Assembly (NCBI GenBank): GCA_964016885.1
Contig: OZ024741.1
Span: forward strand, 231,074,001-231,138,000
Source: Eledone cirrhosa
Taxonomy: Eukaryota
Length of the DNA stretch: 64,000 nucleotides
Direction of reading: 5' to 3'
Below the pieces are notes generated by a model. It was not told where the DNA came from, searched no databases, and saw nothing but the letters and a program-made list of their open reading frames with translations. Position numbers and translations under genes: made by a program. This document shows positions 2,637 to 61,979 of this stretch, in pieces; the first letter of the stretch is position 1; each line of letters starts with the position of its first letter.

Positions 2637-4991
2637 AATGAATAATAACAGGTAGACATCATAAAAAGGTAATTTATTCCGTGTGCTTACAAATGTTTCC
2701 ACGGTGGTAATACAGCCTAGTTATGCTATGTTCAAATTTACAACTAGGGGAGAGGGAGAGAGAGAGAAAGATATGCAGGGGTTGGAGAAATAGGAGAGAG
2801 TGGTTTGTAGATATCTTAATCAAAATGTTATGGTAGGGGTTTTATTATACTGGTTACTTTTAGAGAGATGCGGTGATAGTCAAGGTCGGAATTATTTGTT
2901 GCCCCAGAGGGCAGGTTCATAGATGTGGAGAGGGAGGGAGGTAGGCCAAAGGCGAGAGAGAGAGTGGAATGGATGTAGAGAGAGAGAGAGAGAGAGGGGA
3001 CAGACGAAGTCTATGTGGTGGGTGAACTTAGGGTTCGTAGTAGTAATCTGCGAATTGCACTGAGTTACCATTTATAGTGATAAGCAGTGTATTGTCTTGT
3101 AGTGTGGGGGGAGAGAAGGTGGTTAGCTAGAAAGCGATGTTATAGTTACCGGTTCGAATGTTAAGTTATTTTATAGTGAGAGAACTTAGCTTTTAGTTTG
3201 TGGTTGCAGTATAATGATCGTTCGATTCTATCATTAAGTAGTTTGTTTTTGGATTGTAATATGTAAAAGAGTTCAAGGTTACATAACCTACAGTACTTCA
3301 ATCCACTCCGGTATGCACTTGCGCTGGAAAGTATATCCCATTTTAACGTGAACTGTTGGTTGCTTTCACGGAGTTGCCAGGTCTTGTTGGCGAGCGTGGT
3401 CACAAAACGGTGATCAGGATGTTTGATTGAGAATCGATAACGGTACCGACGAGATTTAAACGAGGTGGTGGTAGATCCGATATAATACCATTTCTGGTCG
3501 TTCGATTCAACCGTGCATTGGTAAACAATGTTGGACTTTAGGCATTCATTCTTCAATGGACATCTTTCAGGTAGATGGCAGTTACATTCTTTGTTGTGGG
3601 TAGCGGGTATACCATGGATAGGTTGTGATAGCTGTACAGGTGGGTTGTGTAATACCTGTCTCCCATTTAATGGTTGGGAGGCAGATATTACGTTCTGCCC
3701 ATCTGTTACCAAAATATTTTGTTTTGTAGTGTTGTTTAATTGCTTTATGTTAAGTTTTTTTTATGTATGCTTCAAGGTTTGGTGCCGTGGAATATGATAG
3801 TGTAATAGTTTTAGAGTTCAGAATTTTACTGTATTTATGGGAACTAGGGAAATGTTTGTTGATTAACTTAAAGAATGAAAGAGATAGTTCTGTACTAATC
3901 GAGGCATTAACAATAGGATTATACCAGATATACTTTCTACAACGTGATTTATTTGGTAGTGATTTTCTATTATTAGTATGTCTGGTGGTACTGTGTGTGT
4001 GCGCTTGTATTTTAGTCCCCCGGTTACGTATTCCTTGATTTCGTGTAGAGCTATGTGTGTTATGGAGATTCTTATCAATGTATTCTATTGTATCCCGGTG
4101 GCCGGCATTCCTTAATGCATTATTATAGTATTCAGCGTGATCACTAAAAATATCAGAGTTAGACGATAGGCGAGAGATTCTAAGAGAAATACGCCGGGGA
4201 ACCGATTTGATCATGTACAGTGGGTGGTTTGAGTTAAAGTTGATATACGTAAGGTTCTCATTTATCTTGTGGAAGGGTCGTATCTGTCCGGTATTTAAAT
4301 TAAGAGTTACGTCCAAAAAGTTTACTACTTTAAGATTGTATTCGTGTGTTATTTTTAGACCCAGTTCACTAAAAGATTTTCTAATATTTTTCCGTAGCCT
4401 TTCAAGATTTTGGTTATTCAAGTTATTAACTAATAAGAGCCCGTCATCTATGTATACCCCCCCCCCTGTAGATTACTAAATTTCCTATGTAGTATGTGGG
4501 CTATGTAAATTCCCACAAGATCCGTGACCTTCGCTGAGTCGTTGGAACCCATGGTAATGTCGAAGTTTGTGGGTCTGTCCGTACGTTCCCAGTAGCAGTT
4601 ATCAAACTTAATAATAGTTTTTCTAGCCTCGAGAATAATATTAATTTAGTCCTACGTTAGGTCGGAATTGACTTTAGCAAACGATAGGGCCTTATGTAAA
4701 GTCCTTGTTGAGATTGAAGAGTAGTATTCGTCTATGTCAAATTGTATAAACTTAGATTTATTCTTATACTTAACGTTATTAAACCAGCGAATTGCTTCGC
4801 TACTGTTTTAATTTAATTTCAATTTTCTTTTTCACTTAAGTTATTACTCTGTCAAGTATATGTTTTACTAATGTTTCCTATGTCTGATTTAGAAGGGCAT
4901 AACTAGGCTGTATTACCACCGTGGAAACATTTGTAAGCACACGGAATAAATTACCTTTTTATGATGTCTACTTGTTATTATTCATTCTTTA
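2632..4991 (-). mobile_element. 5'-truncated Penelope-like element (disrupted RT + GIY-YIG) with 95-bp inverted termini
   Basis: ORF 3750-4421 (VVNFLDVTLNL, YINFNSNHP) and ORF 3161-3712 (NIVYQC...YYIGST...CRLCNLE); 2632-2726 is the reverse complement of 4897-4991. Confidence 0.9.
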
Positions 4992-15074: not shown

Positions 15075-15209
15075 AGTGTTCTAGTGGAACGTTTGGACAG
15101 GACTGTAAGAAGCCGTGCCGTTGCCGCCATAATGACATCTGCAACTTTATAAATGGTACATGTCCTCGTGGATGTGTAGATGGATACACAGGAAAAGACT
15201 GTCAGACAG
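15075..15209 (+). CDS. Internal exon encoding one 8-Cys EGF-like module of a multi-EGF (MEGF10/CED-1-like) protein
   Basis: ccag|AG acceptor, G|gtatgt donor, 135 nt, phase 1-1; (E)CSSGTFGQDCKKPCRCRHNDICNFINGTCPRGCVDGYTGKDCQT. Confidence 0.88.
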
Positions 15210-21547: not shown

Positions 21548-24500
21548 GAATTTGTTTAGCAAGATTCTTTATCTGAAATCGTGTGTTGAAACCGATATTG
21601 TTATACTTTGGGAGGGTCATGTTGCCAATAAGAAACACACGCACCAGTTGCTTTCACTTAAATTTATTATAGTAAATTTATAATAAATTTATACATTTAT
21701 AAATTTCTGGTTGGTTGGTTGGTTCCACAACCAGATAGTTGTTTATATATAGTCATAGTTCTTTCGTCACACACTCTGTGACTTCTTCAGTGACTGGGGA
21801 TTCCTTTCTTTGTTTCTGTGCCTCTCCTTTGTTCTGTCCTACGCCATTTTGTTTCTGTGTGTGGCTTGTGTGCTCAGTATGCGCATGCGCCACATCCGGG
21901 TGTCTGTGTGTGTTTATGTTCATTTATTTATTTATTTATTTACATGTTACTGGTTGGTTGTTTGTTCTATGTGTGCGTGTGTTTTCATTTTGTCCTTAAT
22001 TGTAAGTTGTGATGTTGCTGTTCCACTCATATTTTCTATTTAATTTTGGTTGTAATTCTTTTATGTTTATTGCCTCTGTAATTTGTCTAAACATTGCGTC
22101 TTTTCTGGGTGTAGATTCTATTTTTATTTCTATGTTCTCTAATTTACCCTTGTGTTCTATTTTAGCATGTTGGTAGAGTACAGATGATTCGTTATTATCT
22201 TGAAGGTCTCGCCAGTGTTCATTTATCCGTACCCCTACACTCCGGGCTGTCTCACCTATGTACACTATATTTTTGTCTCTACATTGTCCTTCAGTACATC
22301 TTATGCTATACAGTACATTTCTAGTTTTACAGTTAATATGGGGGCTTATTTTACAAGTTATACATTTTTTATCTATACATGAGGGTCTTTGAAAAGGGTA
22401 TGTCTTGCTAATAAGTGTTTTTACGGAGGTACCTGGTCTTTCTACTATCTTAATATTGAGTTTAGGTTTATTTAGGGCCCTTCTAAATTTGTAAGCTAAT
22501 TCACCTCTAGGGGTTGTATCGATGAACATTACACTCTGGTATTTATTGCTATCATACCATGAGTTTATTCTATTAGCCTTGTTCCTAGTTCTTTCTATTC
22601 TATTCCAAAATTTGCTCCTATACAAGGGGCAGGTCCCATTTATGTCATTATTTACCATTTTTTCCCATTTGGTTCTAGCTCCTCTATACACTCTGATTTT
22701 ATCTCTCTGATTGTAGCCAGAGAACTGCATACGGTGGATGAAGTGTTGTATGTGTCTCTCTAGTTCTTCGGGGTTGCACATGCGGGACACATTTTTCATC
22801 ACCCGTACCAAACCCGCAATCAGTATGTTGATTTTGGTATGGTCCGAAACGGCCGAGTTTCGGTGGATCAGATGTTTGGAAGTCATGGGTTTGGCATAAT
22901 GGGAATGGAGGATTTGTTTTTGTTGTTAATGGTATCTAACCAGAGCTCTGTGTCTAGTACAGGTAATCGATGGTTGGGGTGTTTACTTGGGTAGTCTATA
23001 GTAACTCTAATGCTCTGGTGGATGGAGTTTGCTATTTGCTGGATGCTTTCCATTGTGTTTTTCTCTAGTTCCTGACTGTTCTCTAGTGGGGGTGTCTTAA
23101 CTACGATGTTTATATCATCTACGTAGCGGGAGTACATTATCAGGGTTAAGGGGTCTTCTAATTGTTCTTTAAGTTTAAGTTTAAGTCTACTGTCCCACCA
23201 TACCATGAATAAGTTAGCTATGTCGCCTGCAATGCTAACACCAATGGCTGCTCCTTCCTCTTGGGCATATGTTTTTCCATTAAATTTGAACATATGTTCC
23301 TTAAGGGTTAGTTTTATGCTGGCCCCTACCGCATGTGCAATCATTTTCTTCAGTTCTTCGTGGTTTTCGGGTGTCCGTATGGCTCTGGTCCACCCGTTCC
23401 ATCTATCTGTGTGGGTTTTCTTGGCCATTGAGGTAATGGTAGGTGGTATGCCTCTTGCTGGTCTTGTAGGGAACAGGTTGCTAAGGTCATATGTGTCTAG
23501 GTAATTATTACTATAGGTAAGCCTAAGTAGGAGTCCCAGCTCACTGGTATCAATCCCACGGAACTCAACCTTGCTCTCACTGATCATTTCTACACATTTC
23601 TCCACAGCAAAATCCACGTCAATAGATGGATACAGGGACACAACATCCATACTGCCTATTATGCAGTTTGTTAGGTCCCCAGATCGGTTACTCACGCCGA
23701 TTCTGCTGAGGAGGTCCTCCGTGCTGTCACATACATCTGGGGACATTTCAATGATGGGGCGTATGATCAGGGAGAGGAAGTAGGAGAAGTTCGCAGTTAC
23801 TAGCAATGTTAGCTGCACAGACTGGCCGTATTGGTGGTCCCGCGACATGGTCACAGCCCGTTTGATGGTCTTTTCGAAGCCCATACAACGCCGGCACGTC
23901 ATTGTTCCAGGCCTGGAAGTTGTTGGCAGTCCTTTTGTTGGGCTGCATTATATTCGTCCACATCACCATATGGGCATCGAGGGCTTTTTCTCTATCCTCA
24001 TGCTCCTGTGGTGTTACCTCTCTTGTGTGTTAGTGATGTGGGGGTGCATTGCCTGGATGTAGTTTGGCAGGCTGTCAACCGACATTCAGCCAGACTTGTC
24101 TGTTGGAAAGCATGCTATCTCTCCATTACGTGAGCGCTGCATGAACTTACGCAAGCCATTTGCAGATTTTTCTCCCAGTTGCTGGGCCTCCATTCTATTA
24201 TGCTTCTTGCTATACTGTTCTATAATATTTCTAAGTTCGGATCTAGCTATACTAAATTGTGCTTCTGTTTGTTCATCGACCTGCGACGGCAATTGCGTGC
24301 GTTTGTTAAATGGTAAAGTCGTGGCGTGGACTCGTCGCAGGTCGAATGATTTATCGGAGGGATTATAAAACGTAGGGTTCCAGGCTGCTGCTTTATGTGT
24401 ACTAGTGCTATTGTTATTGTTAGTTGTGTTGTTTCTATTTCTATTTCCACCAACAGCCTCATGGTTGTTTCTATGTCTCTCACAATTACTCCTGTCTCTT

Positions 24501-25629
24501 TCCACTGGCTCATTGTTGTTATCTACCCTATTCTGTGTGTCTGTATGTTCGTCTTGGTTATTCTCTTTGTCCTTAGTCTCCCTTTTCTTTTTAATCCTAT
24601 TACTTTCCCTTATTTCTCTGATTTCTGTGCTACTGTCATTACTTGTTTTCTGTGTCTGTGTGTTTGTTAAGATTGTGGTGGTGGTGAGAGGCATTGAATG
24701 TGTGTGTGTTGTTGTTGTTGTTGATGTGTGCTGTTGTTGATGTGTGTTGTTGTTGTCTCCGTGTGTGTTATCGTTGTTGTGTGTGTTGTTATTGTTGTTT
24801 GTGTCTGCGTGTCTGTTGTTGTTGTTTCTGGGTATGTTGTTATTGTTGTTGTTGTTGGGATGTGTGTTGTATATGTGCGTGCGTATATTGTTGCTTTTGT
24901 TTTTGTTTTTTTTTTTGAGGCTCCAGCGTAGTTTTGTAAATGATTTTTCTATTTCTGAAAGACAACTAATCATATTTACCTTCTTGAATGTCGCAAATTT
25001 CGGGGGTAAACATAACACAGACATCTCATCGTCATCTATTCTTGTGTTACCGTATATATTTGTGTTGTTGTTGTTGTTGAACTCTTCTGTTAATGAGGTA
25101 TCGGCCATATTTATACCGTCAATTTTGTCGGGATATCTATTGGTATTCTCTATAGTATCCTGATTTAGCTTTATCTGCTTAAGCCACTTTAGTTTCTTGT
25201 TAAAGTGCTTATCACATTCTTGAATAATGTACTGTTCTTCAGGGCGTATAAGGCTTATAAATATTAGTTTCTCTCTTGGTGTGGTGATCCTAGCTATTTC
25301 TTGTATTACGTTACGCTTATGTTTTTCTTGATGACTTAATTCTCTATAGATCTTCTTTTTATGTTTAGAATTAATGTTCGTTTTAGCCTATCTGCTTGTT
25401 TTTTGGTGAATTGTAATCTTCTAACGTCGGTGTTGATGGTGTTGGTGTAAACTCGGGATGAGGCACATTCTTTTATGAAGTGTAGTTGTCGAGATGTTAT
25501 GGTTTTTCGTAGACAACAGAACATGGTGGTTTTCAGTATCTTGTTAGCCTGGCTAAGGCTTACGATATTTCGTTTATGAATTTGTTTAGCAAGATTCTTT
25601 ATCTGAAATCGTGTGTTGAAACCGATATT
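21548..25629 (-). mobile_element. Near full-length Penelope-like element (RT, Cys linker, GIY-YIG) with a ~52-bp direct terminal repeat
   Basis: SMDVVSLYPSI, EGAAIG, SRYVDD, LPVLD, CIDKKCITC, NVLYSIRC, VYIGET; gaatttgtttagcaagattc...ccgatatt at 21548 and 25578. Confidence 0.92.
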
Positions 25630-25689: not shown

Positions 25690-28600
25690 GGTAACATGTA
25701 ACCCAGTACTACCTGTCTCATGGTCGGGTCGTCGGCGACTAAACCGACAACCCCACCAAGTGAGGAGGGTGATATTTGGGCACCCTGCGGGATGAAATAC
25801 AAGACCCCGCAAAGGGCGGAGGGACTGAGCAGAGTCAACGGCCATCCAAATAGTACTTTTTTTAATCTTTTTATTTACCTGGGAGTGAAGGTCCCCTGTT
25901 GTTGTCACAACACCTTTCTAGGAGAGGGAAACTTTGAATAAAAACCTGCGGTTTTGGAAGCATCCGATGATGTTGACCAGTTCTCCTTTTCGGGCAATGT
26001 TTTCGATCCTCAGAGAGTGGCATTGGTCGCGTGCAAGGCCTTCCCCACTTAAATAAACCTTCAAAGCACAGACATCGCTTGTTCCGGATCTGTTACAGGT
26101 TCGTGTGGCTGACCGTAGCCTAAAAGTGCACCAAACTCTATGATGACAGATGGTAACCTTGAAGTCAATGGCAGTAAGGGCTCCGGAACTTATTGTGCAG
26201 GGGCCTGGCCCGCCAGGTGTTCCATGGTACTGCAGCGTGGGCCCGGTCGTCATACTACAACTGCAAGGACGTTCGTATCTCTGAATATTGGATGTTGGAA
26301 TGTAAGAACTTTACTGGATTCCCAGTCCAGTAAAACTCGCCATGAAAGATCTGCTTTGGTATCGAGGGAACTCGATCGCTATGGCATGGACATCGATGCT
26401 CTTTCAGAAACGAGATTGGCAGGAGAGGGTCAATTCACAGAACTGAAGGGAGGATATACCTTCTATTGGAGTGGTGGAGCAGAGGGTTGTAGAAGAGAGG
26501 CAGGGGTCGCATTTGCAATCAGGAATGGAATCGTCTCAAAGCTGAAAAATCTTCCTTGTGGATTCAATGATCGGATATTGTCCATGAGAGTCCCTCTGAT
26601 TCAAAACTGCTTTGTGACTCTGGTCAGTGTGTACGCTCCTACTATGTGTGCTAGTGATGATGGAAAACTAAGTTTCTACATGTATTTGAGAGAGGTCATC
26701 CATAGTATACCTTATGCAGACACGATTGTCATCCTTGGTGATTTTGATGCACATGTTGGTAATGGCTGGGAAGCTCAGAGTGTGATAAGACAACTTGGAT
26801 GCATCCAGGTTCCAAGAAGTGGAACATTATTGACTTCATTTCAACAAGAAAACGTGATATCAGGGATATCACGTTGGTTCGTGTATTGCGAGGCGCGGAA
26901 TGTTGGACTGATCATCGTCTGGTGCACGCCAAGTTTCAATTTGTTGTGAAGCCCAACGCAAGGGGGAAGAAGGTTGCACTTCCAAAACAACAAAGCGTGG
27001 CACGTTTGAAAACAGAGAAAGTCAGAGCTGAGCTGTTGAGGTCCCTTTTAGTCCATGTAATGTGAAAACACTGGGATTCATTGAAGAAAACCGTCTTTGA
27101 TGTTAGTACTGGAGTTTTGGGTCATACCAATAGAAAGCAAAAAGACTGGTTCGATGAACATGATCCAGTGATCCAGACCTTGCTTGAAGAGAAACAAAAA
27201 TTGCTGACATCATTGTTGTGTGAGACACGTTCTGGCGGGAGTGACCGGACCTTCAGGCAAATCAAGGCACGACTGTAACATCGATTGAGAGCCATGCAGG
27301 AAACCTGGTGGAGTCAATAGGCTGATGAGATCCAGAAGGCCTCAGATAAACATGATACAAAGCTCTGATACAGTCTGTTCAGGGAGGTGTATGGTCCTAC
27401 CGGTTCACAAATATCACCACTTCTCTCTGGGGACGGCAAGGAATTGCTCAGAGATCTGAAGGAAATGCTGATCCGGTGGCATGACTACTTTGATGAGCTT
27501 CTCAACAGACCATCAAAAATTGATGATTAGTTCATCCGGTCGATTCCATCGAGACATACAAAGCTGGCAATGGATTATCCTCCGTCATTTGATGAGGTGG
27601 CGAAGGCCATTACCAAATTAAATAGCGGCAAGTCACCTGGAATGGATGGACTGAGTGCCGAGATTTTCAAGCGTGCTGGTGATAAATTCTTAAACCGCCT
27701 CACTGATCTCTTTGTGAATGTTTGAAATGAAGATGTGCCACAGGATTGGAAAGAAGCATTGATGGTGTTACTTTACAAAGGAAAGGGAGTCAAAGATGAC
27801 TGTGGCAACTACAGAGGCATTTCACTCCTATCTGTAGCTGGGAAGATCTTGTGCAGGATATTGTTGGAGAGACTGATACAGCATATTGCTGTTGGGGTAC
27901 TTCCTGAGTCCCAATGTGGCTTTAGGAATGGCAGAGGCACTGTTGACATGATCTTGTCGGCCAAACAACTTCAAGATAATGCATTGAGCAGCGCATCGAC
28001 TTATACCAAGTTTTTGTCGATCTGACCAAGGCATTTGACACCGTTAATCGGAAGGCTTTGTGGGTTATTTTGGAGAGATTGGGCTGTTCTGGAAAGTTTG
28101 TGAACATTCTGAAACCCTTCCACAATGACATGCAGGCAGGGGTGAATGTTGGAGGTAAACTGTCTGAGCCAATCTCGGTTTAAAATGGTGTCAAGCAGGG
28201 TGATATTCATGCACCGACTTTGTTTGCCTTATATTTCGCGATGATGTTCTTCATGGCCTTTAAGGATTGTCAACACAGTATCTATCTAACATATCGCACA
28301 TCCAGCAGGATGTTTAACCTTCGGCGTCTCACTGCCAATACTAAGGTACTGAGTACCTTGATCTGAGAATGTTTATATACAGATGATTGTGATCTTTTTG
28401 CACACTCCCAGCGTGACATGCAACACTTTATGGATTTTTTTTCCAATGCCTGCAGTGCTTTGGGACTGACAATCAGTCTGAAGAAGACTGTCGTCATGTA
28501 CCAACCTGCACTGGATGAAGTTTTCAATGAACCCTCCATACACGTATACGATCAAACGCTGAAGGCTGCTGACACATTTGTGTATTTAGCGAGTATTCTG

Positions 28601-29520
28601 AGTGTGACCTGCTCTCTGGATGCAGAAGTTGGTCTACGTGTTAGTAAGGCAAGTGAGTCATTTGGAAGGATCAAAGACCGTCTTTGGTGCAGGTGAGGAA
28701 TCACAATGAGGGCCAAGGTGAAGTGTATGCTGCATGTGTAGTGTTAGCTTTGATGTATGCATGTGAGACATGGGTTGCCTACAAATGGCATATCCACAGA
28801 CTGGAACGGTTCACGAGAAAGATGCTCGGTATCATGTGGCAGATGCATGTGAGTGATATTGAGAGCCTTGAGAGGAATGAATTTCGGAGCATTGAGAGTA
28901 TCATCCACCAACGGCGTTTACGATGGACCGCACACCTCTGCAGAATGGAGGATGATCGAATCCGAAAACAACTCTTATATGGCGAGTTTTGTGAGGGTAA
29001 GAGACCACCTCACAAGCCAAAGCTCCGATTCAAGGATTGGGTAAAGGACTCATTGAAAAAAACTGGTTTGATGATGGCTGACTGGGAGATAGAAACACTT
29101 GAAAGAGAAACTTGGCGTGGAATGTTGAATGATGAGGTCCATAATTTTGAGGACGCACGCATAGAACACGAGAAGATTAAACGGGATGTGCGTAAGCAAT
29201 GTCCTGGAGTATATCTCGAAACGATCGGTGTCTCCATTGAATTGAAGTGCCCTGAGTGTGGAAAAATTTGCTTGAGCAAATCTGATCTCAGGATGCACAG
29301 TCAAAGCCATGTTAAAAGAGAACGGGTAAACTATTATCTCCACGGTGTTGTGAGAGTTCACGGGCAACCTGATGCAGGACCTCAAGCCAGGGAGATCCAT
29401 AGTTGTCGTCGGTGTGTGAAGGAGTGCAAGTCCCTAGCAGGCTTCAAAAGCCATATCCGAACATCCCACATCTGAATCTGACAAGCGATTGCAGTACTCT
29501 TGGCAGAGTTTGCAGCCATC
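25690..29520 (+). mobile_element. Full-length degenerate RTE-clade LINE (APE + RT + C-terminal C2H2 fingers)
   Basis: CWNVRTL, ALSETRL, SVYAPT, ILGDF, TDHRLV, NYRGISLLS, PESQCGFR, DLTKAFD, YTDD, RRLRWTAH, KQLLYGE; multiple stops and frameshifts. Confidence 0.93.
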
Positions 29521-38406: not shown

Positions 38407-38541
38407 AATGCAGCGTGGGAACCTATGGCAACGAATGTAAAACGAAATGTAATTGTCTAAATAATGACGTCTGCAACGGAGCCACTGGTGTATGCCCAAA
38501 TGGATGCCCAAATGGCTACACATCACCCACCTGTCAAGAAA
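38407..38541 (+). CDS. EGF-like exon (divergent first member of cluster)
   Basis: tttcag|AA acceptor, weak A|gtttta donor, 135 nt; (E)CSVGTYGNECKTKCNCLNNDVCNGATGVCPNGCPNGYTSPTCQE. Confidence 0.8.
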
Positions 38542-38689
38542 GTTTTAACATTTAGTATCTATTTGGCATGACAGTGCAATATAAAATATGTCCTTCATAG
38601 TTATAAATACTAAATTGAGAGAAAATAAAATGTAATAATATTTTCGGTAGTAAACATTTGAAAGAAAGTGATTATAAATATGATTTCTA

Positions 38690-38870
38690 GTTCAGGCACA
38701 AGGCCAGTAATTTGGTAGGAGGGGAACGTCGATTAAATCTACCACAGTACGGGTCTGGTGTTTTATTTTATCGTTCCCGTAAGGATGAAAAGCAAAGGTA
38801 ACCTCGGTGGTATTTGAACTCAGACCGTAAACGACTGTAACTTTATGCTGCAAAGCATGGTTTCCGACTT
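38690..38870 (-). mobile_element. tRNA-derived SINE, antisense, between the first two cluster exons
   Basis: Reverse complement of SINE body: tttattttatcg...cgtaaggatgaaaagcaaag...atttgaactcaga. Confidence 0.7.
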
Positions 38871-38965
38871 CTCCTGATGAGCATTTTGTAAATGATTCAA
38901 CTTACAACACTAGTCATGCAATAATTAAAATGTTTGGTATCTGAATTATGACCATTCTTTTTCAG

Positions 38966-39100
38966 AATGCAGCCCGGGAACCTATGGCAACAATTGTACA
39001 ATGAAATGTAATTGTCTAAATAAAGACGTCTGCGACCATGTCACTGGAGTATGCCCAAATGGATGCCCACTTGGCTATATACCAGACACTTGTCAAGAAG
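38966..39100 (+). CDS. EGF-like exon, array unit 1 (NNCTMK type)
   Basis: ttcag|AA...AAG|gttagt; (E)CSPGTYGNNCTMKCNCLNKDVCDHVTGVCPNGCPLGYIPDTCQE. Confidence 0.82.
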
Positions 39101-39223
39101 GTTAGTAACATTTAGTGTGTATTTGGCATGACTGTGCGTTCATAATAAAATGCAATAATTAAAATGTTTGGTATCTTTACATTTGATCTTTTTACATCGT
39201 GAATTATGACCATTCTTTTTCAG

Positions 39224-39358
39224 AATGCATCCCGGGAACCTATGGAAACCAATGTAAAACGAAATGTAATTGTCTAAATAAAGACGTCTGCGACCATGTC
39301 ACTGGAGTATGCCCAAATGGATGCCCACTTGGCTATATACCAGACACTTGTCAAGAAG
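39224..39358 (+). CDS. EGF-like exon, array unit 2 (CIPG...NQCKTK type)
   Basis: cag|AA...AAG|gttggt, 135 nt, open frame, 8 Cys. Confidence 0.8.
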
Positions 39359-39481
39359 GTTGGTAACATTTAGTGTCCATTTGGCATGACAGTGCGTTTA
39401 TAATAAAATGCAATAATTAAAATGTTTGGTATCTTTACATTTAATCTTTTTACATCGTGAATTATGACCTTTGTTTTTCAG

Positions 39482-39616
39482 AATGCAGCCCGGGAACCTA
39501 TGGCAACAATTGTACAATGAAATGTAATTGTCTAAATAAAGACGTCTGCGACCATGTCACTGGAGTATGCCCAAATGGATGCCCACTTGGCTATATACCA
39601 GACACTTGTCAAGAAG
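39482..39616 (+). CDS. EGF-like exon, array unit 3 (NNCTMK type)
   Basis: AG/GT bounded, 135 nt, open frame, 8 Cys. Confidence 0.78.
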
Positions 39617-39739
39617 GTTGGTAACATTTAGTGTCCATTTGGCATGACAGTGCGTTTATAATAAAATGCAATAATTAAAATGTTTGGTATCTTTACATTT
39701 AATCTTTTTACATCGTGAATTATGACCTTTGTTTTTCAG

Positions 39740-39874
39740 AATGCAGCCCGGGAACCTATGGCAACAATTGTACAATGAAATGTAATTGTCTAAATAAAGA
39801 CGTCTGCGACCATGTCACTGGAGTATGCCCAAATGGATGCCCACTTGGCTATATACCAGACACTTGTCAAGAAG
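39740..39874 (+). CDS. EGF-like exon, array unit 4
   Basis: Appears identical to unit 3. Confidence 0.78.
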
Positions 39875-39997
39875 GTTGGTAACATTTAGTGTCCATTTGG
39901 CATGACAGTGCGTTTATAATAAAATGCAATAATTAAAATGTTTGGTATCTTTACATTTAATCTTTTTACATCGTGAATTATGACCTTTGTTTTTCAG

Positions 39998-40132
39998 AAT
40001 GCAGCCCGGGAACCTATGGCAACAATTGTACAATGAAATGTAATTGTCTAAATAAAGACGTCTGCGACCATGTCACTGGAGTATGCCCAAATGGATGCCC
40101 ACTTGGCTATATACCAGACACTTGTCAAGAAG
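39998..40132 (+). CDS. EGF-like exon, array unit 5
   Basis: Appears identical to unit 3. Confidence 0.78.
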
Positions 40133-40255
40133 GTTGGTAACATTTAGTGTCCATTTGGCATGACAGTGCGTTTATAATAAAATGCAATAATTAAAATGTT
40201 TGGTATCTTTACATTTAATCTTTTTACATCGTGAATTATGACCTTTGTTTTTCAG

Positions 40256-40390
40256 AATGCAGCCCGGGAACCTATGGCAACAATTGTACAATGAAATGTA
40301 ATTGTCTAAATAAAGACGTCTGCGACCATGTCACTGGAGTATGCCCAAATGGATGCCCACTTGGCTATATACCAGACACTTGTCAAGAAG
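40256..40390 (+). CDS. EGF-like exon, array unit 6
   Basis: Appears identical to unit 3. Confidence 0.78.
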
Positions 40391-40513
40391 GTTGGTAACA
40401 TTTAGTGTCCATTTGGCATGACAGTGCGTTTATAATAAAATGCAATAATTAAAATGTTTGGTATCTTTACATTTAATCTTTTTACATCGTGAATTATGAC
40501 CTTTGTTTTTCAG

Positions 40514-40648
40514 AATGCAGCCCGGGAACCTATGGCAACAATTGTACAATGAAATGTAATTGTCTAAATAAAGACGTCTGCGACCATGTCACTGGAGTAT
40601 GCCCAAATGGATGCCCACTTGGCTATATACCAGACACTTGTCAAGAAG
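40514..40648 (+). CDS. EGF-like exon, array unit 7
   Basis: Appears identical to unit 3. Confidence 0.78.
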
Positions 40649-40771
40649 GTTGGTAACATTTAGTGTCCATTTGGCATGACAGTGCGTTTATAATAAAATG
40701 CAATAATTAAAATGTTTGGTATCTTTACATTTAATCTTTTTACATCGTGAATTATGACCTTTGTTTTTCAG

Positions 40772-40906
40772 AATGCAGCCCGGGAACCTATGGCAACAAT
40801 TGTACAATGAAATGTAATTGTCTAAATAAAGACGTCTGCGACCATGTCACTGGAGTATGCCCAAATGGATGCCCACTTGGCTATATACCAGACACTTGTC
40901 AAGAAG
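40772..40906 (+). CDS. EGF-like exon, array unit 8
   Basis: Appears identical to unit 3. Confidence 0.78.
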
Positions 40907-41029
40907 GTTGGTAACATTTAGTGTCCATTTGGCATGACAGTGCGTTTATAATAAAATGCAATAATTAAAATGTTTGGTATCTTTACATTTAATCTTTTTA
41001 CATCGTGAATTATGACCTTTGTTTTTCAG

Positions 41030-41164
41030 AATGCAGCCCGGGAACCTATGGAAACCAATGTAAAACGAAATGTAATTGTCTAAATAAAGACGTCTGCGAC
41101 CATGTCACTGGAGTATGCCCAAATGGATGCCCACTTGGCTATATACCAGACACTTGTCAAGAAG
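41030..41164 (+). CDS. EGF-like exon, array unit 9 (NQCKTK type)
   Basis: 135 nt, donor G|gttagt. Confidence 0.78.
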
Positions 41165-41287
41165 GTTAGTAACATTTAGTGTGTATTTGGCATGACTGTG
41201 CGTTCATAATAAAATGCAATAATTAAAATGTTTGGTATCTTTACATTTGATCTTTTTACATCGTGAATTATGACCATTCTTTTTCAG

Positions 41288-41422
41288 AATGCAGCCCGGG
41301 AACCTATGGCAACAATTGTACAATGAAATGTAATTGTCTAAATAAAGACGTCTGCGACCATGTCACTGGAGTATGCCCAAATGGATGCCCACTTGGCTAT
41401 ATACCAGACACTTGTCAAGAAG
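41288..41422 (+). CDS. EGF-like exon, array unit 10 (NNCTMK type)
   Basis: 135 nt, donor G|gttggt. Confidence 0.78.
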
Positions 41423-41545
41423 GTTGGTAACATTTAGTGTCCATTTGGCATGACAGTGCGTTTATAATAAAATGCAATAATTAAAATGTTTGGTATCTTT
41501 ACATTTAATCTTTTTACATCGCGAATTATGACCTTTGTTTTTCAG

Positions 41546-41680
41546 AATGCAGCCCGGGAACCTATGGAAACCAATGTAAAACGAAATGTAATTGTCTAAA
41601 TAAAGACGTCTGCGACCATGTCACTGGAGTATGCCCAAATGGATGCCCACTTGGCTATATACCAGACACTTGTCAAGAAG
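41546..41680 (+). CDS. EGF-like exon, array unit 11 (NQCKTK type)
   Basis: 135 nt, donor G|gttagt. Confidence 0.78.
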
Positions 41681-41803
41681 GTTAGTAACATTTAGTGTGT
41701 ATTTGGCATGACTGTGCGTTCATAATAAAATGCAATAATTAAAATGTTTGGTATCTTTACATTTGATCTTTTTACATCGTGAATTATGACCATTCTTTTT
41801 CAG

Positions 41804-41938
41804 AATGCAGCCCGGGAACCTATGGCAACAATTGTACAATGAAATGTAATTGTCTAAATGAAGACGTCTGCGACCGAGTCACTGGAGTATGCCCAAATGG
41901 ATGCCCAATTGGCTATATATCAGACACTTGTCAAGAAA
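41804..41938 (+). CDS. EGF-like exon, array unit 12 (terminal, divergent)
   Basis: (E)CSPGTYGNNCTMKCNCLNEDVCDRVTGVCPNGCPIGYISDTCQE, donor A|gttagt. Confidence 0.8.
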
Positions 41939-42259
41939 GTTAGTAACATTTAGTGTCTCTTTAGCATGACTGTACGTTGTAAGATCTATTCTTCATAGGT
42001 AGATATACTAAATCGAGAGAAAATAAAATGTACTAACATTTTTGGTATTAAACATTTAAGACAAAGTGATTATAAATATGATTTCCAGTATAGCACAAGG
42101 CCCGTAATTTTTTATTTTTTGTATTTTTTGGGGGGGAGTCGACTGAGATTCAGTATAATAATAACATTAATAAAGGTGCTGATGTTACATAAATAGTTTA
42201 TGGATTATAATTATTTCAATTTTATTCCCTCGTAATCAAGATGCAATTGATGCATTTAT

Positions 42260-44200
42260 TGTTATGAAAACGGTATCCTCAGGTGAAATTATATTTTGTG
42301 ACATGCGCCCCGGCAGTAAAATCACGTCCCTCTGTTCGTACACCCTGCAGACATATGAGTTCCTAAAAGGGTCTCTGAGCCGTTGTGTTTACTGGAGTAA
42401 TGTGCTATCCACGTGTCAATTAGCAAAATCAGGATTCACGTAACATCGACGGAATTAGGGTTGTAAATCAACAAAACGTTAACTCCCCAAGTGTGTTGAT
42501 CTATACCAAACGATACTGTATGCGTAGCTAGAATCCAGCAGATTGTGGAAGCAATAAACGGAACTCTGTGGGTGGGTGAGGTATATTTTTTTTTGACTGC
42601 CACATTATTGAGATAATCGAGAGGGGAGCAGAGGTTATCAACAAAAGGAGTAACCTGTTCAGCAGCTGTCACCACAGATCAACTGGAAGATTCGTCAGAC
42701 ACTGCGGATTAACAGCAGGGTTGACCATAGCTTGACAATGGAGGCTGGACGTGGCCACACAACTACTCCAGCATCAGGTGAATCCTGGATAGTTTATGTG
42801 CACCCGTCCCGAATCAATCTACCCCCATTCTGTTATGCAGGATTGGGATATTATGATTGAGACATGAGGGTCCGTGTTTTACATCCGTTTGTTCCTCGTT
42901 CCTTGTTCTCCGTATGTATAAATACTTTTGTATTTACGTTTAATCTTTCTTCCGTTTGGCCCCATGTTCTACAGATGTGCACCTGTATTTATAACTATGT
43001 TTTTTTTTCTATATTCGCTTCCTACAGCTCACTTCCACAGTCTAGTAGTCCTTTTTCGCCGGACGTAGTTGTTACCGTTGTTATTATTAATACCAACGTA
43101 GGGCGGTGGATTGGCAGTATCAGTAGAGGGCCGGACTTGACGCATGGAGTTATGGTCCTTTATGATCTGAGTTCAGATCCCGCCGAGGTTAACTTTGCCT
43201 TTTATCCTTACGGAGTCGATAAAATAAAGTACCAGTTACGCACTGCGATCGATTTAATCGACTTTTCCCCTTCTCCCAAAATTGCTGGCCTTGGGCCTAT
43301 ATAACAAACAATTATTAATACCAACGTATGTGCGGTGGATTGGCAGTATCGATACAGCGTCGGACGCCATGCTTTGCAGCATAGAGTTATGGCCCTTTAT
43401 GACCTATGTTCAAATCCCACCAAGTTTAATTTTGCCTTTCATTCTTATGGAATCGATAAAATATAGCAGATGTAACCTATTGGCATAGATTTAATCTACT
43501 TCCCCCTCACCCAAAATTGTTGGCCGTGTGCCTATATTAGAAACAATTATTAATACCAACGAAGGAAAAACTGACTACTATTGCGGTTTATTGTTATTTT
43601 CTACAGAGATTATTGCTGGCCTTGTGCAAAAGGGTGGAAACAATGATTATTATGAGTATTATGTTAGTACTATTATTAATGTAAGTATTTATGGACAGCG
43701 ACCGGAACCACTAGGCCTTTTTTTGTTGCTGTCGTCGCCGTGACGGGTTTATTACTGGTGTTGTTGTTGATAGTGTGGGCGATGAGGCAGTGTTGCTGTT
43801 GATGCCGTTGTTGTTGTCGCTGCTGTTATCTTGAAGATGGCTGTCATCAAGTGTGTATATCGCCCTACATCAAAGTTCATTGCCGTTGATGTTGTTGCTG
43901 TTATCGTTGTTGTCAGCTGTGCATAACTTCTAAAGATTAGCAACTTTTAGACACGATGGATATTTAAAACAACTGCTAATATTTTAAATAATCCCTATTG
44001 TAGAGCCGACCATGTTACTACTCACACTTTTGCTATTATTACTCCAAGAACCACCTGCCCAGGAACATACTTAAACCAGCCACCCTACTAGGGAGATCTT
44101 TTCTTCAGTCAAAAACGCCGAACCTTAAAACTAACCTCGATACAGTCTACGCATAACCTCTAGCTAGATTACTTTAAACGATATCTGGCTATCTTACACA
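42260..44200 (+). repeat. Duplicated block A copy
   Basis: Colinear with 1-1850 including the tandem SINEs. Confidence 0.9.
43095..43555 (+). mobile_element. Tandem tRNA-derived SINEs
   Basis: Same SINE motifs as 850-1275. Confidence 0.7.
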
Positions 44201-56339: not shown

Positions 56340-59300
56340 AGTATTAATTATACTATTTATGGTTATGTAAATACAAAAACACTTTTGCAGTTATATGTAT
56401 TTTTTTATACAAACCCTAAATAGTGGTAGGCAGTAATATATTACTACCTTATTACCAGTAAGTTAAGTAGCTCAATGTAAAAACATCAGATGATTTACAG
56501 AGCAGTTATATGAAATATAAGAATCAAAGAACTGTTCAAAACATGTTTGTGCTTACAGCTGTTTCCTCCAAACCGAGGTTTGGATTCTTCGGAGCAATTT
56601 ATTAATGAATGGACAGTTATATGACCTCCTTTTCAGCCAAGAGACATACAGATACATATGCAAATATTGTGGGTCAACATTCATTACAGCATTTAGAGTG
56701 GCAGTACACACTTCGAGATTAAATTCATATTAAAATGTACAATCAAAAATCAAAAATACAGGTTAAAGTACAACATGAAAATAAGCGGTTATATAGTGCA
56801 AATGTTATATGTGTGGCAAGCACGTGCGTCTTGTTTATATAGTGTGGCAGATCGTTACGTGTAGTAGGATCACTTAGGTAGGTAAACAAGAGTGTTGGGT
56901 TGGTTGATCTGGTGGCAAATTCTTTATATGATTGTTATAGTCTGTGTGTGGAGAAATGATATGAGCATTAAAAATAGTGCAAGCATTAAAAGTATTAGAT
57001 GTATTGGAAATGCACAGTGAAGGGATTATATGGATTTCATGTACTTCGACATTTTCATGGTCAGGGGAGTGTATTTTTCAGATTATATGCCCCTCACATA
57101 ATCCACGACAATTCGATATTGAGCGTTTGACAATCCAGTTAGAGAATCGTAGTCTGATGTTCTTTAGTTCAATACAGGAGACTGTTACGTTTCGATAATC
57201 GACATTGAATACTACCCGGAAGTGTGTGTGTGGCTAAGGGGAGTTAATGCATGAGGGGAGGTAACTCAGGGGTTTCTATTCCTAGCTATTGAAATGTGTC
57301 TCAATATAGACCCTAATTTCTATGGTTATGTGCAACTTCCAAAAAATTTATAAAGCATAAAGTGTTTTAACTATAGAGTAGTTCATTAAGTTGTGCTGAA
57401 GGTGTTCGTATTATTATGGTGAATTAACCCCCATCGTAGGGTGTCACAAATGAATATTATAGACGATGAGCGAGGATTCTAAATTAATGATCTCTGTGGT
57501 TGTAGTCTACTCATAGGACCAGATTGCAGAATCACTTCAACACACAATGATCTCTGGTAAGTTCTGTGTCATCGCTTGCTACATTGGATGTCGAAAGATA
57601 ATCATCACCAGGGCCGGCCAGAGGTCAATCCGCAGTCCTCATGACCCCACTCTGACCGTCAAATCATCCATATATGTACAACCCGCACGCCAGTTGCAAT
57701 ACATTCATTCTCTGCACTCAGCGTCCTGGTCCTACTGCTCAACAGCGTTACCAGATTAAATCGTTTTTCATCCGTCCAAAGAAGGCACCTCCCCCGCACA
57801 ACACTACCAAGCCAATCAATTCATGCTTAAATTACCTATAGAGCGGTGTAGTGCAGTTCAAGTGGGTGGATGTTGTCACACATAACGTAGAGGTATAAAA
57901 GGGTATTCTCCCTGCGAAAGGTTCCAGAGGGATGTCGTTGTTTGTGTTATATTAGATCAGTTAGTGTTGGGTATGTGGTATAAGGTGTGCCCCTGGTGTT
58001 TGATGCTAGATGTGGTGTTTGGTTCAAGTCCGACATTGCTATATATTGGGCTTAAAGTTTTGGAAGGAATGTCTGAAGCGGTGCTGGCAAGTTGCAAACA
58101 CCTCAGATTTTTTGTTAAGTAGGTTACGGTTGGAGAAGATAATATTGTGGGTCTCTAGTATACAGAGGTTACAACATTTATTAGGTGGTTTGTACGAAGT
58201 CGCGCTGCCTATCACTTCCCATTTTAGTGTGTATGGTTTATTTTTAGTTTTTAGATCGTGTATGTAGCTAGATAGTGAGGTGGAGTTGGCTAGGCTGTGC
58301 TTTTTGAACGAGTGGATGTGCGAATTATATCTGATTTTGAAGCAGTTAGATGTGGAGCCTACATATGTTTCTGAGGAGTTGCTAGTTGTGAGGGTGCATG
58401 AGTATATGATATCCTTGGTTAGGCATTTTTTATCTAAAGGGCAGGTTCTATTAGCTCTACAGTTACAATTATTCTGTGAGTTAGTCTGCTGGTTATAATG
58501 CAGTGCAGAAGTCTGGGTGGTAGCTATAGGATTTTGGACATTCGGGTTATCAACCCCGGTGTTATTTCTTATACTAGTGTTATTTCTATAGTTACTGCCG
58601 TTACTATGGTTGCTTGCTACAGAGGTATTTAGAAGGTTTGCATCCTGTTGTGATTTCGTTTGTTGGAAGTAAGAATTAATTTTACTTTTATTGCTGCTAG
58701 CTATGTGGTATGCTAAGTTAGGCGTCGTAGAGTATGCGATTTTAATAGTGTTTTTGTTTAAAAGGTTGTGGTACTTGTGTCCTAGAGGGAAGTTTTTATC
58801 TAGTAGTGAGAAGAAAGCCCTAGGTATGTTGGTGGAGACATTTAGGTTGAAAGGAGGGTTGAAAAATGTATTATTTCTTCTTCTATTTTTGTTTTTAGTG
58901 TTTGGTGTGTTGTTTCTTCCTAAGGCACCACAGTAGTTTCCGTGGTAATGGTTACTTCCGGTGGCACCCTCCGCTTTGGTGCATTTGTGGTTGCTATTCC
59001 TATTATTAGGTTTCCTCATGGACATGTTGTGCGAGATGATGTTGTAGCTATGTGTTTTCTTAGGTAGGAACTCAATTTCTATATTATGGCCGGATCTAGC
59101 TAATGCTTGATTGTAATATTGTGAGTTTTTGCTAAATATGTTAGCGTCATAGGATAGACTAGAAATTCTATTGGATACCCCCTTAGAGATAGAGTTTCAT
59201 ATTGATCTAGGGTGGTTAGACTTGGTATCTACGTAAATGAGTTTTTCGTTAGGCTTATGGAAAGGTGTATATATTTTTGAGTGTAGGTATAGTGTGGCGT

Positions 59301-61979
59301 CTAGGAAGTTAACGTTTTTAGTGTTTTTGTCCATGGTGATACTAAGGTTAAAGTTTTTGAATGTCTTGTGCAATTGTTTTCTAGTTCCTTCTATATTAAA
59401 TGTTTTATATTCTATGTGTAGAAGTGCATCATCAGGTACAAACCACCGTTGAGGTAAGGGAGGTCCTTATGGATTTCATTGAAAAGGTATAGGCCGACCA
59501 AATCAGTGACCTGCGCCGAGTCACTAGATCCCATGGTTATGTCGAAGTTGTTGTGCGTATCCTAGCGTGTCCATAGTTGGTCCTCGAAGGTGATTATGGT
59601 TTTACGGGCCGCAAGGATGACATCAATCTGGGCTCTAGTCAGGTTGCTATTGTTCATGGCCATGATAAGTGCCTTATTTAATAGGATAGGGGAAATAGAG
59701 GTGTAGTATGAATTGATATCAAATTGAATAAATTTTTTGTCCTTATTATTCTTGATATCTTTGAACCATTCAATCACTTCACCCGTATTTCCCCATTGTT
59801 TAAGGTGTATCTGGTGTTTAATTTGTGGGATGATTTTATCCAAAATTATCTTGCTGATAATACCAATTTCGGACTTGGAAGGGCAGATAAGTCTTATCGA
59901 GGGGTTGCTGTTGAATTCCTCCTTATGGTCCTTCAGAGAGAATCTAGGGGGGTTGGGGTGAATGGTTGTGTATGCCTCTGAAGTCCTAGTTTAGACACTA
60001 TATTATATACCTCTATATTAATATCTTCCAAGTTTTTCGAGGTGGTCTTTTTGTAGCTTTTATGTAGTTCATTATATATAAACTTTCTATAAGTATTATA
60101 ATCTAGGCTGTATATGTTATTAGTTTTATCTGCGTGTACAATAATTTTATTACTAGTTTTGAATCCATTAATAGAGGTGTTAAGTTTGTTTAAGAAGGTG
60201 TTGCTTCTAATATGGTGCTTATTGTATTTAATGTTCTTAACTAGTTTAACTAGGTCATTTTCAAAGGAGTTAAGTAGTGTGTTATGAGGGGGGCTTTTAA
60301 AGGTTTTAAAGCCGAAGGAGTCAAATTTGTTAGTATTATTCACATTGTTAGATCTGTTTCAATCATAATGGAATGTCTTCCATCTCACTCTATTGATAAA
60401 TGAATTTACACTGTTGATCAGCAATTTCTAATATGTATTCCTGGATGGTATTGGTATGTTCTTGGTTGACATTGGGGAGTTGGTCTTTGATTAGCATATT
60501 GGTAATATTATATGTCAGCTCAACAGTATGGAGCAGTTAATAGTATTAATTATACTATTTATGGTTATGTAAATACAAAAACCCTTTTGCAGTTATATGT
60601 ATTTTTTTATACAAACCCTAAATAGTGGTAGGCAGTAATATATTAATACCTTATTACCAGTAAGTTAAGTAGCTCAATGTAAAAACATCAGATGATTTAC
60701 AGAGCAGTTATATGAAATATAAGAATCAAAGAACTGTTCAAAACATTTTTGTGCTTACAGCTGTTTCCTCCAAACCGAGGTTTGGTTTCTTCGGAGCAAT
60801 TTATTAATGAATGGACAGTTATATGACCTCCTTTTCAGCCAAGAGACATACAGTTACACCTGCAAATATTGTGGGTCAACATTCATTACAGCATTTAGAG
60901 TGGCAGTACACACTTCGAGATTAGATTCATATTCTATAGTTAAAACTACTCTATAGTTAAAACACTTTATGCTTTAGACATTTTTTGGAAGTTGCGCATA
61001 ACCATAGAAATTAGGGTCTATATTGAGACACATTTCAATAGCTATGAATAGAAACCCCTGAGTTACCTCCCCTCATGCATTAACTCGCCTTAGCCACACA
61101 CACACTTCCGGGTAGTATTCAATGTCGATTATCGAAACGTAACAGTCTCCTAAAGAACATCAGACTACGATTCTCTAACTGGATTGTCAAACGCTCAATA
61201 TCGAATTGTCGTGGATTATGTGAGGGGCATATAATCTGAAAAATACACTCCCCTGACCATGAAGATGTCGAAGTACATGAAGTCCATATCATCCCTTCAC
61301 TGTGCATTTCCAATACTTCTAATACTCTTAATACTTGCACTATTTTTAATGCTCATATCATTTCTCCACACACAGACTATAACAATCATATAAATAATTT
61401 GCCACCAGATCAACCAACCTAATACTCTTGTTTACCTACCTAAGTGATCCTACTACACATAACGATCTGCCACACTATATAAACAAGACGCACGTGCTTG
61501 CCACACATATAACATTTGCACTATATATCCGCTTATTTTCATGTTGTACTTTAACCTGTATTTTTTATTTTTTATTGTACATTTTAATATGAATCTAATC
61601 TCGAAGTGTCTACTGCCACTCTAAATGCTGTAATGAATGTTGACCCACAATATTTGCATATGTATCTGTATGTCTCTTGGCTGAAAAGGAGGTCATATAA
61701 CTGTCCATTCATTAATAAATTGCTCCGAAGAATCCAAACCTCGGTTTGGAGGAAACAGCTGTAAGCATAAAAATGTTTTGAACAATTCTTTGATTCTTAT
61801 ATTTCATATAACTGCTCTGTAAATCATTTGATGTTTTTACATTGAGCTACTTAACTTACTGGTAATAAGGTAGTAATATATTACTGCCTACCGCTATTTA
61901 GGGTTTGTATTAAAAAATACATATAACTGCAAAAGGGTTTTTGTATTTAAATAACCATAAATAGTATAATTAATACTAT

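Follow-up and report, generated by a model that had tools for sequence, protein, structure and literature searches.

A 64,000-nucleotide window of the Eledone cirrhosa genome (3.0 Gb; assembly GCA_964016885.1, contig OZ024741.1, here C2, positions 231074001-231138000) carries a tandem array of 12 exons of the epidermal growth factor (EGF) type, which is recovered in sequencing reads, bears the marks of exchange among its units and lies between a lectin-fold head upstream and a predicted transmembrane exon downstream. With moderate confidence, we read the array as 12 exon-plus-intron copies within a predicted single-pass receptor of the molluscan galactose-binding domain (GBD)/MEGF family, in which it is likely a length-adjusting insert of the EGF stalk.

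The exon array and its copy number

Tandem Repeats Finder (TRF) scored positions 38942-41978 of the window, on the forward strand, as 11.8 copies of a 258-bp period with 97% matches and 0% indels, which agrees with the strict period noted in an earlier reading made from the letters alone (the sequence-only reading). The 12 exons start at 38966 + 258n and the last ends at 41938. Every exon follows a pyrimidine tract with a CAG acceptor, runs for 135 nt without a stop, encodes eight cysteines and is followed by a GT donor, all in phase 1-1, and the donor reads GTTGGT or GTTAGT in all 12 units. Where the sequence-only reading had described 12 complete, spliceable exon-plus-intron units, the exon number and all of these features are retained, introns of 123 nt number only 11, and spliceability refers to the signals. 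The intron upstream of unit 1 measures 424 nt, and that downstream of unit 12 extends 23,304 nt to the next detected exon, at C2:231139243. If a 123-nt intron were retained, read-through translation would meet an in-frame stop one or two codons in, and the list of open reading frames (ORFs) of the window holds no stop-to-stop frame of at least 100 aa that overlaps the array, so the remark that ORF-based tracks miss it was correct. In a control, 1 of 2000 doublet-shuffled units gave a frame-symmetric, stop-free AG..GT exon of at least 120 nt with at least eight cysteines.

Units 3-8, introns included, show no difference across 258 nt, as had been claimed, and unit 10 shows one. Among the 11 full units, 16 of 55 pairs are identical and no pair differs at more than 14 of 258 positions, so that the proposed "very recent" amplification describes units 3-8 and not the array as a whole. 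Four kinds of peptide are encoded by the 12 exons (8+2+1+1 copies), namely E1 in units 1, 3-8 and 10, E2 in units 9 and 11, E2' in unit 2 and E3 in unit 12. An N-x-T sequon at residue 9 is present in E1 and E3 and absent from E2 and E2', and nine of the 12 units carry one. The introns are of two types, A (after units 1, 9 and 11) and B, which differ at 8 of 123 sites. On its acceptor side, unit 1 has a flank (38915-38941) that is about 24 nt short in comparison with the internal units and a close paralogue at C2:231143727, and a high-copy repeat (~38650-38874) lies directly upstream of it.

The copy number was compared with six runs of read data, none of them of RNA, an absence that carries no information on expression. 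The runs comprise three contig sets of one sample and three runs of restriction-site-associated DNA sequencing (RAD-seq) of other samples, where contig depth is a rough measure of copy number and the sampled animal may be the source of the assembly. In all three contig sets, the end of a unit was rejoined to the start of a unit (41957 to 41700, 258 back) at depths of 66.2, 97.4 and 57.4, and contigs of the single-copy flank had depths of 6.2-10.7. Relative to the flank, the joint contig gave 8.5, 9.4 and 7.3 against 9.65 expected from 31-mer copy numbers in the assembly, the E1-start contig 7.9, 9.2 and 7.2 against 9.55, and the E2-variant contig 2.7, 2.7 and 2.4 against 2.52, while the E1:E2 depth ratio was 2.9-3.4 against 9:3 units assembled. 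Because these ratios match the expectation from the assembly, the assembled number of units is about right for the one sample measured, and the array is not an assembly artefact; the sequence-only reading had named such an artefact as its first possible refutation. A true unit number below the assembled one, which six consecutive identical units and the absence of type-A intron letters from the read contigs would favour, is barely credible given the joint, depths within ~25% of the assembled numbers and the E1:E2 ratio. In RAD-seq of the three other samples, only ~1-4 reads fell on the unit. They include type-A as well as type-B intron letters and are too few for copy number, but hint that the unit is present in other animals. 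Single reads of run X6 carry the type-A letter at 41765 and the type-B letters at 41792/41795, too few to count; if they came from one read, it would be a recombinant intron without counterpart in the assembly. The flanks at 38650-38874 and 42121-42692 were dominated by high-copy repeats in the read comparison.

The predicted host receptor and its family

To place the array in a gene, 1.064 Mb around the window was fetched, and the Octopus bimaculoides protein XP_014769031 was used as the reference for exon order. All exons of the gene context lie on the forward strand and follow the order of this protein, with N-terminal exons, an EGF exon, the lectin-fold head, an EGF run, a last EGF exon and the transmembrane exon (Table 1). 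Intact EGF-type exons number 37, of which 36 follow the head, and the array supplies 12 of these 36. We call the gene octopus-type because its closest named proteins are from Octopus. The scan for transmembrane exons was confined to two stretches, the DNA upstream of the gene and that following the last EGF exon. Since no second lectin-fold head was found between the first head and the transmembrane exon, a predicted single gene of more than 600 kb is the simplest model, under which we infer the splice linkage between the array and the transmembrane exon.

The position of the amplified symmetric exon in a receptor ectodomain, as the sequence-only reading had it, is therefore upheld by the head upstream and the transmembrane exon downstream. 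That reading had also pointed to signal-peptide, transmembrane or protein tyrosine phosphatase (PTP) exons outside the window, and only the transmembrane exon was found. There was no PTP match in C2:230.67-231.74 Mb, including 316 kb after the transmembrane exon, and the nearest PTP exons among the matches listed are at C2 232.70 Mb, past the two lectin heads that come next (232.02 and 232.19 Mb), where 231.74-232.02 Mb lies outside the fetched DNA.

Based on its architecture, the gene fits the molluscan GBD/MEGF ("scavenger class F-like") family and, within it, subgroup 1B, as it has a galactose-binding, fucolectin-like head, multiple EGF/Tie2-like cysteine-rich modules and a predicted single transmembrane helix. 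Receptors of subgroup 1B also have a signal peptide and a short cytosolic tail that lacks known domains, and exons for these two parts were looked for here but not identified. It shares with the family the lectin-fold head, the EGF-type run, one transmembrane segment and clustered paralogues, while its modules are ~45-60% identical to those of known family proteins, which makes them homologues rather than demonstrated orthologues. In the domain and fold searches, which were run with individual exons and with an alignment of them, head exon 1 matched PF22633 with 30.5 bits (cut-off 27.8) and the second head exon was also found. The array exon matched the laminin-type EGF profile PF00053 out of register (residues 14-43 on profile positions 1-32 of 49, E 0.13), and its best Pfam match was PF24887 (E 0.002), both below the cut-off. 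The EGF exon profile matched SCARF1 and Tie2, with SCARF1 as the best sequence match of solved structure (E 1e-12). Neither a single exon nor the head exon gave a match in word-index protein searches, but HMMER-wide and profile searches did find relatives. AlphaFold2 predicted that one exon folds alone, with a mean confidence score (pLDDT) of 90.5 for the 44-residue model, and Foldseek gave no match to this model at E <= 0.001. All eight cysteines are invariant in the 24 of 24 aligned intact exons, which were partly selected by their cysteine pattern, and the decayed neighbouring exon copies give a picture of unconstrained copies. The Biomphalaria receptors of this kind are described as "potential scavenger class F-like" subgroup 1B (PMC13712769). 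Those with phosphatases lie in the SudRes1 resistance region (PMC12297450), and both papers link GBD/MEGF-type clusters to schistosome resistance in snails by genetic mapping (PMC13712769, PMC12297450). Subgroup 1C, to which SudRes1 with its tandem cytoplasmic PTP belongs, was set aside for the present gene, as no PTP was found at the locus.

Draper, CED-1 and MEGF10 are marked by an N-terminal EMI domain and by NPxY and YxxL motifs in the cytoplasmic part. The sequence-only reading had assigned the array to this type of receptor from its cysteine spacing, and we could not support the assignment, since the array module is spaced differently and the locus yielded no EMI match. Where SCARF1 and Draper-like exons on contig C4 have one residue between two of the cysteines, the array module has three. 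A genome search with EMI (PF07546) gave one match, on contig C1, and none at the locus, with low sensitivity for split exons; the N-terminal region of the locus follows XP_014769031, itself without an EMI match. The module resembles SCARF1 in sequence and, weakly, this group in fold (Foldseek E 0.16, probability 0.89), whereas the lectin-fold head and the lack of an EMI match at the locus distinguish the gene from both Draper/CED-1/MEGF10 and SCARF1. EGF exons with Draper/MEGF10-type cysteine spacing and several modules per exon are present at C4:62.386-62.402 Mb, which is likely a true Draper-like gene. As for the head, F-type lectins bind sugar through a canonical motif of His...Arg-x-Asp...Arg/Lys. 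Compared with solved F-type lectin domains, the head has Thr at both the His and the Asp positions, so that fucose binding was not supported even though the fold is related.

Table 1. The array, its units and the other exons of the predicted gene (plain numbers are window positions, C2 numbers are contig positions)
Feature	Position	Strand	Basis or remark
Tandem array, 11.8 copies of a 258-bp unit, with 11 introns (123 nt) between 12 exons	38942..41978	+	TRF, exon mapping
Unit 1 exon, E1 (sequon at residue 9), then type-A intron	38966..39100	+	
Sample 123-nt intron: ~40 nt donor-side flank, ~9 nt filler, ~74 nt acceptor-side flank, all flanks ancestral	39101..39223	+	Alignment with paralogous exon flanks
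Unit 2 exon, E2' (without sequon), then type-B intron	39224..39358	+	
Units 3-8: E1 exon and type-B intron, six identical copies	39482..41029	+	0 differences in 258 nt
Units 9-11: E2 and intron A; E1 and intron B (one change); E2 and intron A	41030..41803	+	
Unit 12 exon, E3, then ancestral long intron	41804..41938	+	
13th, diverged older copy of the array exon type	38407..38541	+	73% amino-acid identity to E1
Type-C exon, a different EGF subtype, assigned by prediction to the same gene	15075..15209	+	
N-terminal exons	C2 230.808, 230.814, 230.874 Mb	+	Match XP_014769031 residues 31-48, ~52-101, 102-141
EGF exon upstream of the head	C2 230.887 Mb	+	
Lectin-fold (F5/8 galactose-binding) head, two exons	C2:230894985 (230.895 Mb)	+	
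K-type EGF exons, seven intact	C2 230.980-231.009 Mb	+	
A/B/C/D-type EGF exons, 29 intact, array included	last one at C2:231415937	+	
Transmembrane exon, 91 nt, predicted	C2:231422269	+	Best of 22 hydrophobic candidates

Type-A exons were also copied through segmental duplications of 10-25 kb that are ~77-94% identical, and at least three decayed exon copies lie in the gene. The EGF exon after the head, present once in XP_014769031, occurs here as seven intact and two decayed, strongly diverged copies (C2:230980413-231008860), two of them 237 bp apart. Paralogous heads with EGF clusters were found on C2, C10, C17, C20 and other contigs. At C10:25.88-27.17 Mb and C2:314.46-314.48 Mb, related EGF exons stand in pairs or triples ~300 bp apart and are 78-97% alike where scored by TRF; these clusters are older versions of short-range exon duplication. 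At least 13 head matches had near-equal scores (C20:3.99-5.28 Mb, C27:14.3-14.8 Mb, C22, C23), and many of those on C20 are 100-430 kb apart, a spacing that suggests recent large segmental amplification. Long uninterrupted tyrosine-phosphatase frames of up to ~1250 aa at C22:17643413, C14:9149860-9164507 and C10:12086702 are intronless or retrocopied genes, and other loci have split exons. Elsewhere in the window, near-identical ORFs lie on opposite strands as inverted duplicates (50551-50886/51118-51456 and 53751-54173/54067-54489) and on one strand (~51937-52531/54477-55129). Frames at 3161-4472, 21996-25387, 26119-29475 and 58039-60358 resemble what we take to be broken reverse-transcriptase/endonuclease pieces in long introns. 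Two weak cysteine-bearing matches near the left end of the window were judged to be chance and were not counted.

Origin of the array and competing explanations

When aligned with the flanks of older copies, the 123-nt intron proved to be chimeric, joining ~40 nt from the ancestral donor side to ~74 nt from the ancestral acceptor side through a short filler. Such a junction would be the footprint of a single tandem duplication, and the array appears to have begun when one exon was copied together with ~74 nt of upstream and ~40 nt of downstream flank, which would have made the new intron. All four possible pairings of an exon type with an intron type are seen among the 11 units, in both registers. 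Since simple copying of one unit cannot yield all four, exchange between units is required, as the sequence-only reading had anticipated. Unequal crossover and gene conversion would thus have expanded and mixed the units in a minisatellite-like manner. The changes of E2 are clustered within 15 nt and partly match older paralogues, which suggests that they came by conversion from these paralogues, and because of this suggested conversion the age of the array is not readable from its divergence.

Selection on the modules was analyzed with codon models on 12 distinct type-A exon sequences (44 codons; tree bootstrap 30-93). The overall omega of 1.3-1.4 was not different from 1 (p 0.2-0.3), and M2a was favored over M1a with p values of 1e-5 and 2e-4 under two frequency models and omega2 of 3.9-5.4. 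Residues 9 and 12 rank highest (posterior 0.99 and 1.0) and are among the sites that separate E1 from E2. An earlier pooled pairwise dN/dS (1.3, or 1.8 without cysteines) was set aside because its pairs are non-independent, and the codon models replaced it. Taken at face value, these results would agree with modules that themselves bind under diversifying selection, where amplification raises avidity for one ligand; in DMBT1, long alleles bind a bacterium and short ones do not (PMC9038570). We consider this very improbable. Gene conversion, which is seen in the data, inflates such tests and the tree of only 44 codons is poorly supported, so the signal is a lead only, and the head domain would be the more usual binding site.

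Within the 1.064 Mb, 12 near-identical tandem arrays were found (period of at least 60, at least 2.8 copies, at least 90% matches). A convincing exon is present in one of the 12, and the others are mostly members of two dispersed repeat families. An array of 15 units of 310 bp, 99% identical and without an exon candidate, sits in one of the introns of the predicted host gene (C2:231154083-231158720). Units of 310 bp that are 97-99.7% identical also form shorter arrays at C2:230788633 and 231581888; a genome search with this repeat returned nothing and was uninformative, with common words skipped. Considering the number of such arrays, the decayed exon copies, an overall omega indistinguishable from 1 and an exon array too young for visible decay, this array could be the by-product of a high local rate of tandem duplication, with its exons unused or the whole gene decaying. 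This explanation seems unlikely to us, as no exon difference among the 12 units hits a cysteine, makes a stop or breaks AG/GT, 36 intact exons after the lectin head stand against about three decayed ones, and most of the other arrays, being of the two repeat families, may arise differently.

We therefore return to the stalk insert as the favored explanation. Since each unit has full splice signals in phase 1-1, gain or loss of a unit would keep the reading frame and add or remove one disulfide-rich module of 45 residues. We predict that splicing includes the exons mostly constitutively, giving 12 x 45 = ~540 residues with nine N-glycosylation sequons, and the longer stalk would place the lectin-fold head at a greater distance from the membrane. 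By analogy with DMBT1, we expect variation to be chiefly allelic, as copy number between animals.

A different source of variation would be splicing, if symmetric exons with weak donors were skipped variably to give each animal a ladder of stalk lengths, with 0 to 12 added modules, and of glycan loads. The 1-1 phase and the non-consensus GTT donors of all 12 units would allow this, but GTT-type donors are also found in older single copies and in the last EGF exon and are thus not special to the array, and introns of 123 nt look long enough not to force mutual exclusion. Because eight of the 12 exons are identical and only four peptides are encoded, skipping would alter length and glycan load, and hardly specificity. 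An argument of the Argiope paper is the same, that identical units spliced variably change length only (PMC9779670), while DMBT1 shows occasional skipping in one of five transcripts (PMC9038570). Variable splicing of this kind is improbable in our view, and the array likely lengthens the stalk rather than adding binding specificities. Of the diversified recognition receptor that the sequence-only reading had proposed, the receptor context is retained and diversity made by splicing is weakened. In a more far-reaching form, which we put forward tentatively as a doubtful possibility, the array would be a minisatellite ruler: unit number would shift between generations and tune the reach of the head and the glycosylation of the stalk, two interconverting kinds of module, only one of them with a glycan site, would differ at diversifying sites, and microbes or self/non-self contact would impose balancing selection.

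Several points weigh against the stalk insert and the gene model under it. The one-gene model spans a gap of 200 N, no convincing match to residues 1-20 of XP_014769031 was found for a signal-peptide exon, and no cytoplasmic-tail exon was identified. Copy number comes from a single sample, possibly the one that was assembled. None of the read contigs contains the type-A intron letters (39104-39141 and 41765), which dropped bubbles may explain. The usual donor consensus is GTRAGT, from which the array donors depart, so that skipping is possible, and it is from splice signals that we infer inclusion of the exons in transcripts. The conserved site class of the codon models comprises only 22-26% of sites, essentially Cys and Gly, with little constraint otherwise. 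Lastly, the expansion may be neutral because near-identical arrays are common here, and the host gene may be a pseudogene.

Known parallels and meaning

Compared with XP_014769031, which has five EGF-type exons after the head, the present gene has 36, a third of them from one 258-bp array. To put the array among its relatives, 263 proteins were compared, 250 of which have at least three modules; cluster representatives and gene models of this kind under-count repeats. The number of modules per relative has a median of 7 and a maximum of 27 (n=250). Adjacent modules at least 90% alike were found in 20 of the 250, a run of at least four in one, the Mizuhopecten yessoensis protein XP_021356726, and a run of six or more in none. 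This scallop protein is of the same family and likewise has F5/8 domains followed by five adjacent modules at least 90% alike, three of them identical, but its run is shorter and known from a gene model only. With 11 adjacent modules at least 90% alike, six of them identical, the run of the array is the longest among the 250 relatives checked. Both the family and the process are known ones. A literature search found no paper on the octopus locus by title, with most subscription journals outside its coverage.

DMBT1, whose repeat units are kilobase-scale, would be the best functional precedent by analogy. It too has tandem cysteine-rich domains encoded by exons, and is a pattern-recognition protein, although the domain is another one, the protein is secreted, and copy-number variation is proven there and only predicted here. 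Human DMBT1 alleles encode 7-21 SRCR domains, genetic variation and not splicing sets isoform length, four of five full-length transcripts matched the genomic repeat number, and binding depends on repeat length (PMC9038570). Exon-plus-intron units of Argiope MaSp2 are homogenised to ~97%, sometimes with two alternating intron types, and unequal crossover was invoked (PMC9779670). Homogenised units and two intron types are thus common to both, whereas MaSp2 is a structural fibre protein whose repeat makes up most of the gene and the present array is a patch in a receptor stalk. A Dscam-type cluster of many distinct exons was rejected, as only four peptides come from the 12 exons.

Were splicing and polymorphism not borne out, the gene would be an unstable one with a young tandem repeat of an ordinary kind. 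One long polymerase chain reaction is enough to type the ~3.1-kb array across animals, which makes variation in stalk length testable in a cephalopod. For annotation, repeat masking together with ORF-based methods could erase a third of the EGF exons of such a gene. For the snail receptors, unequal crossover and gene conversion are offered as a speculation on how such families diversify (PMC13712769). Taken together, the locus shows unequal crossover and gene conversion of a resistance-linked receptor family in a fresh, readable state.

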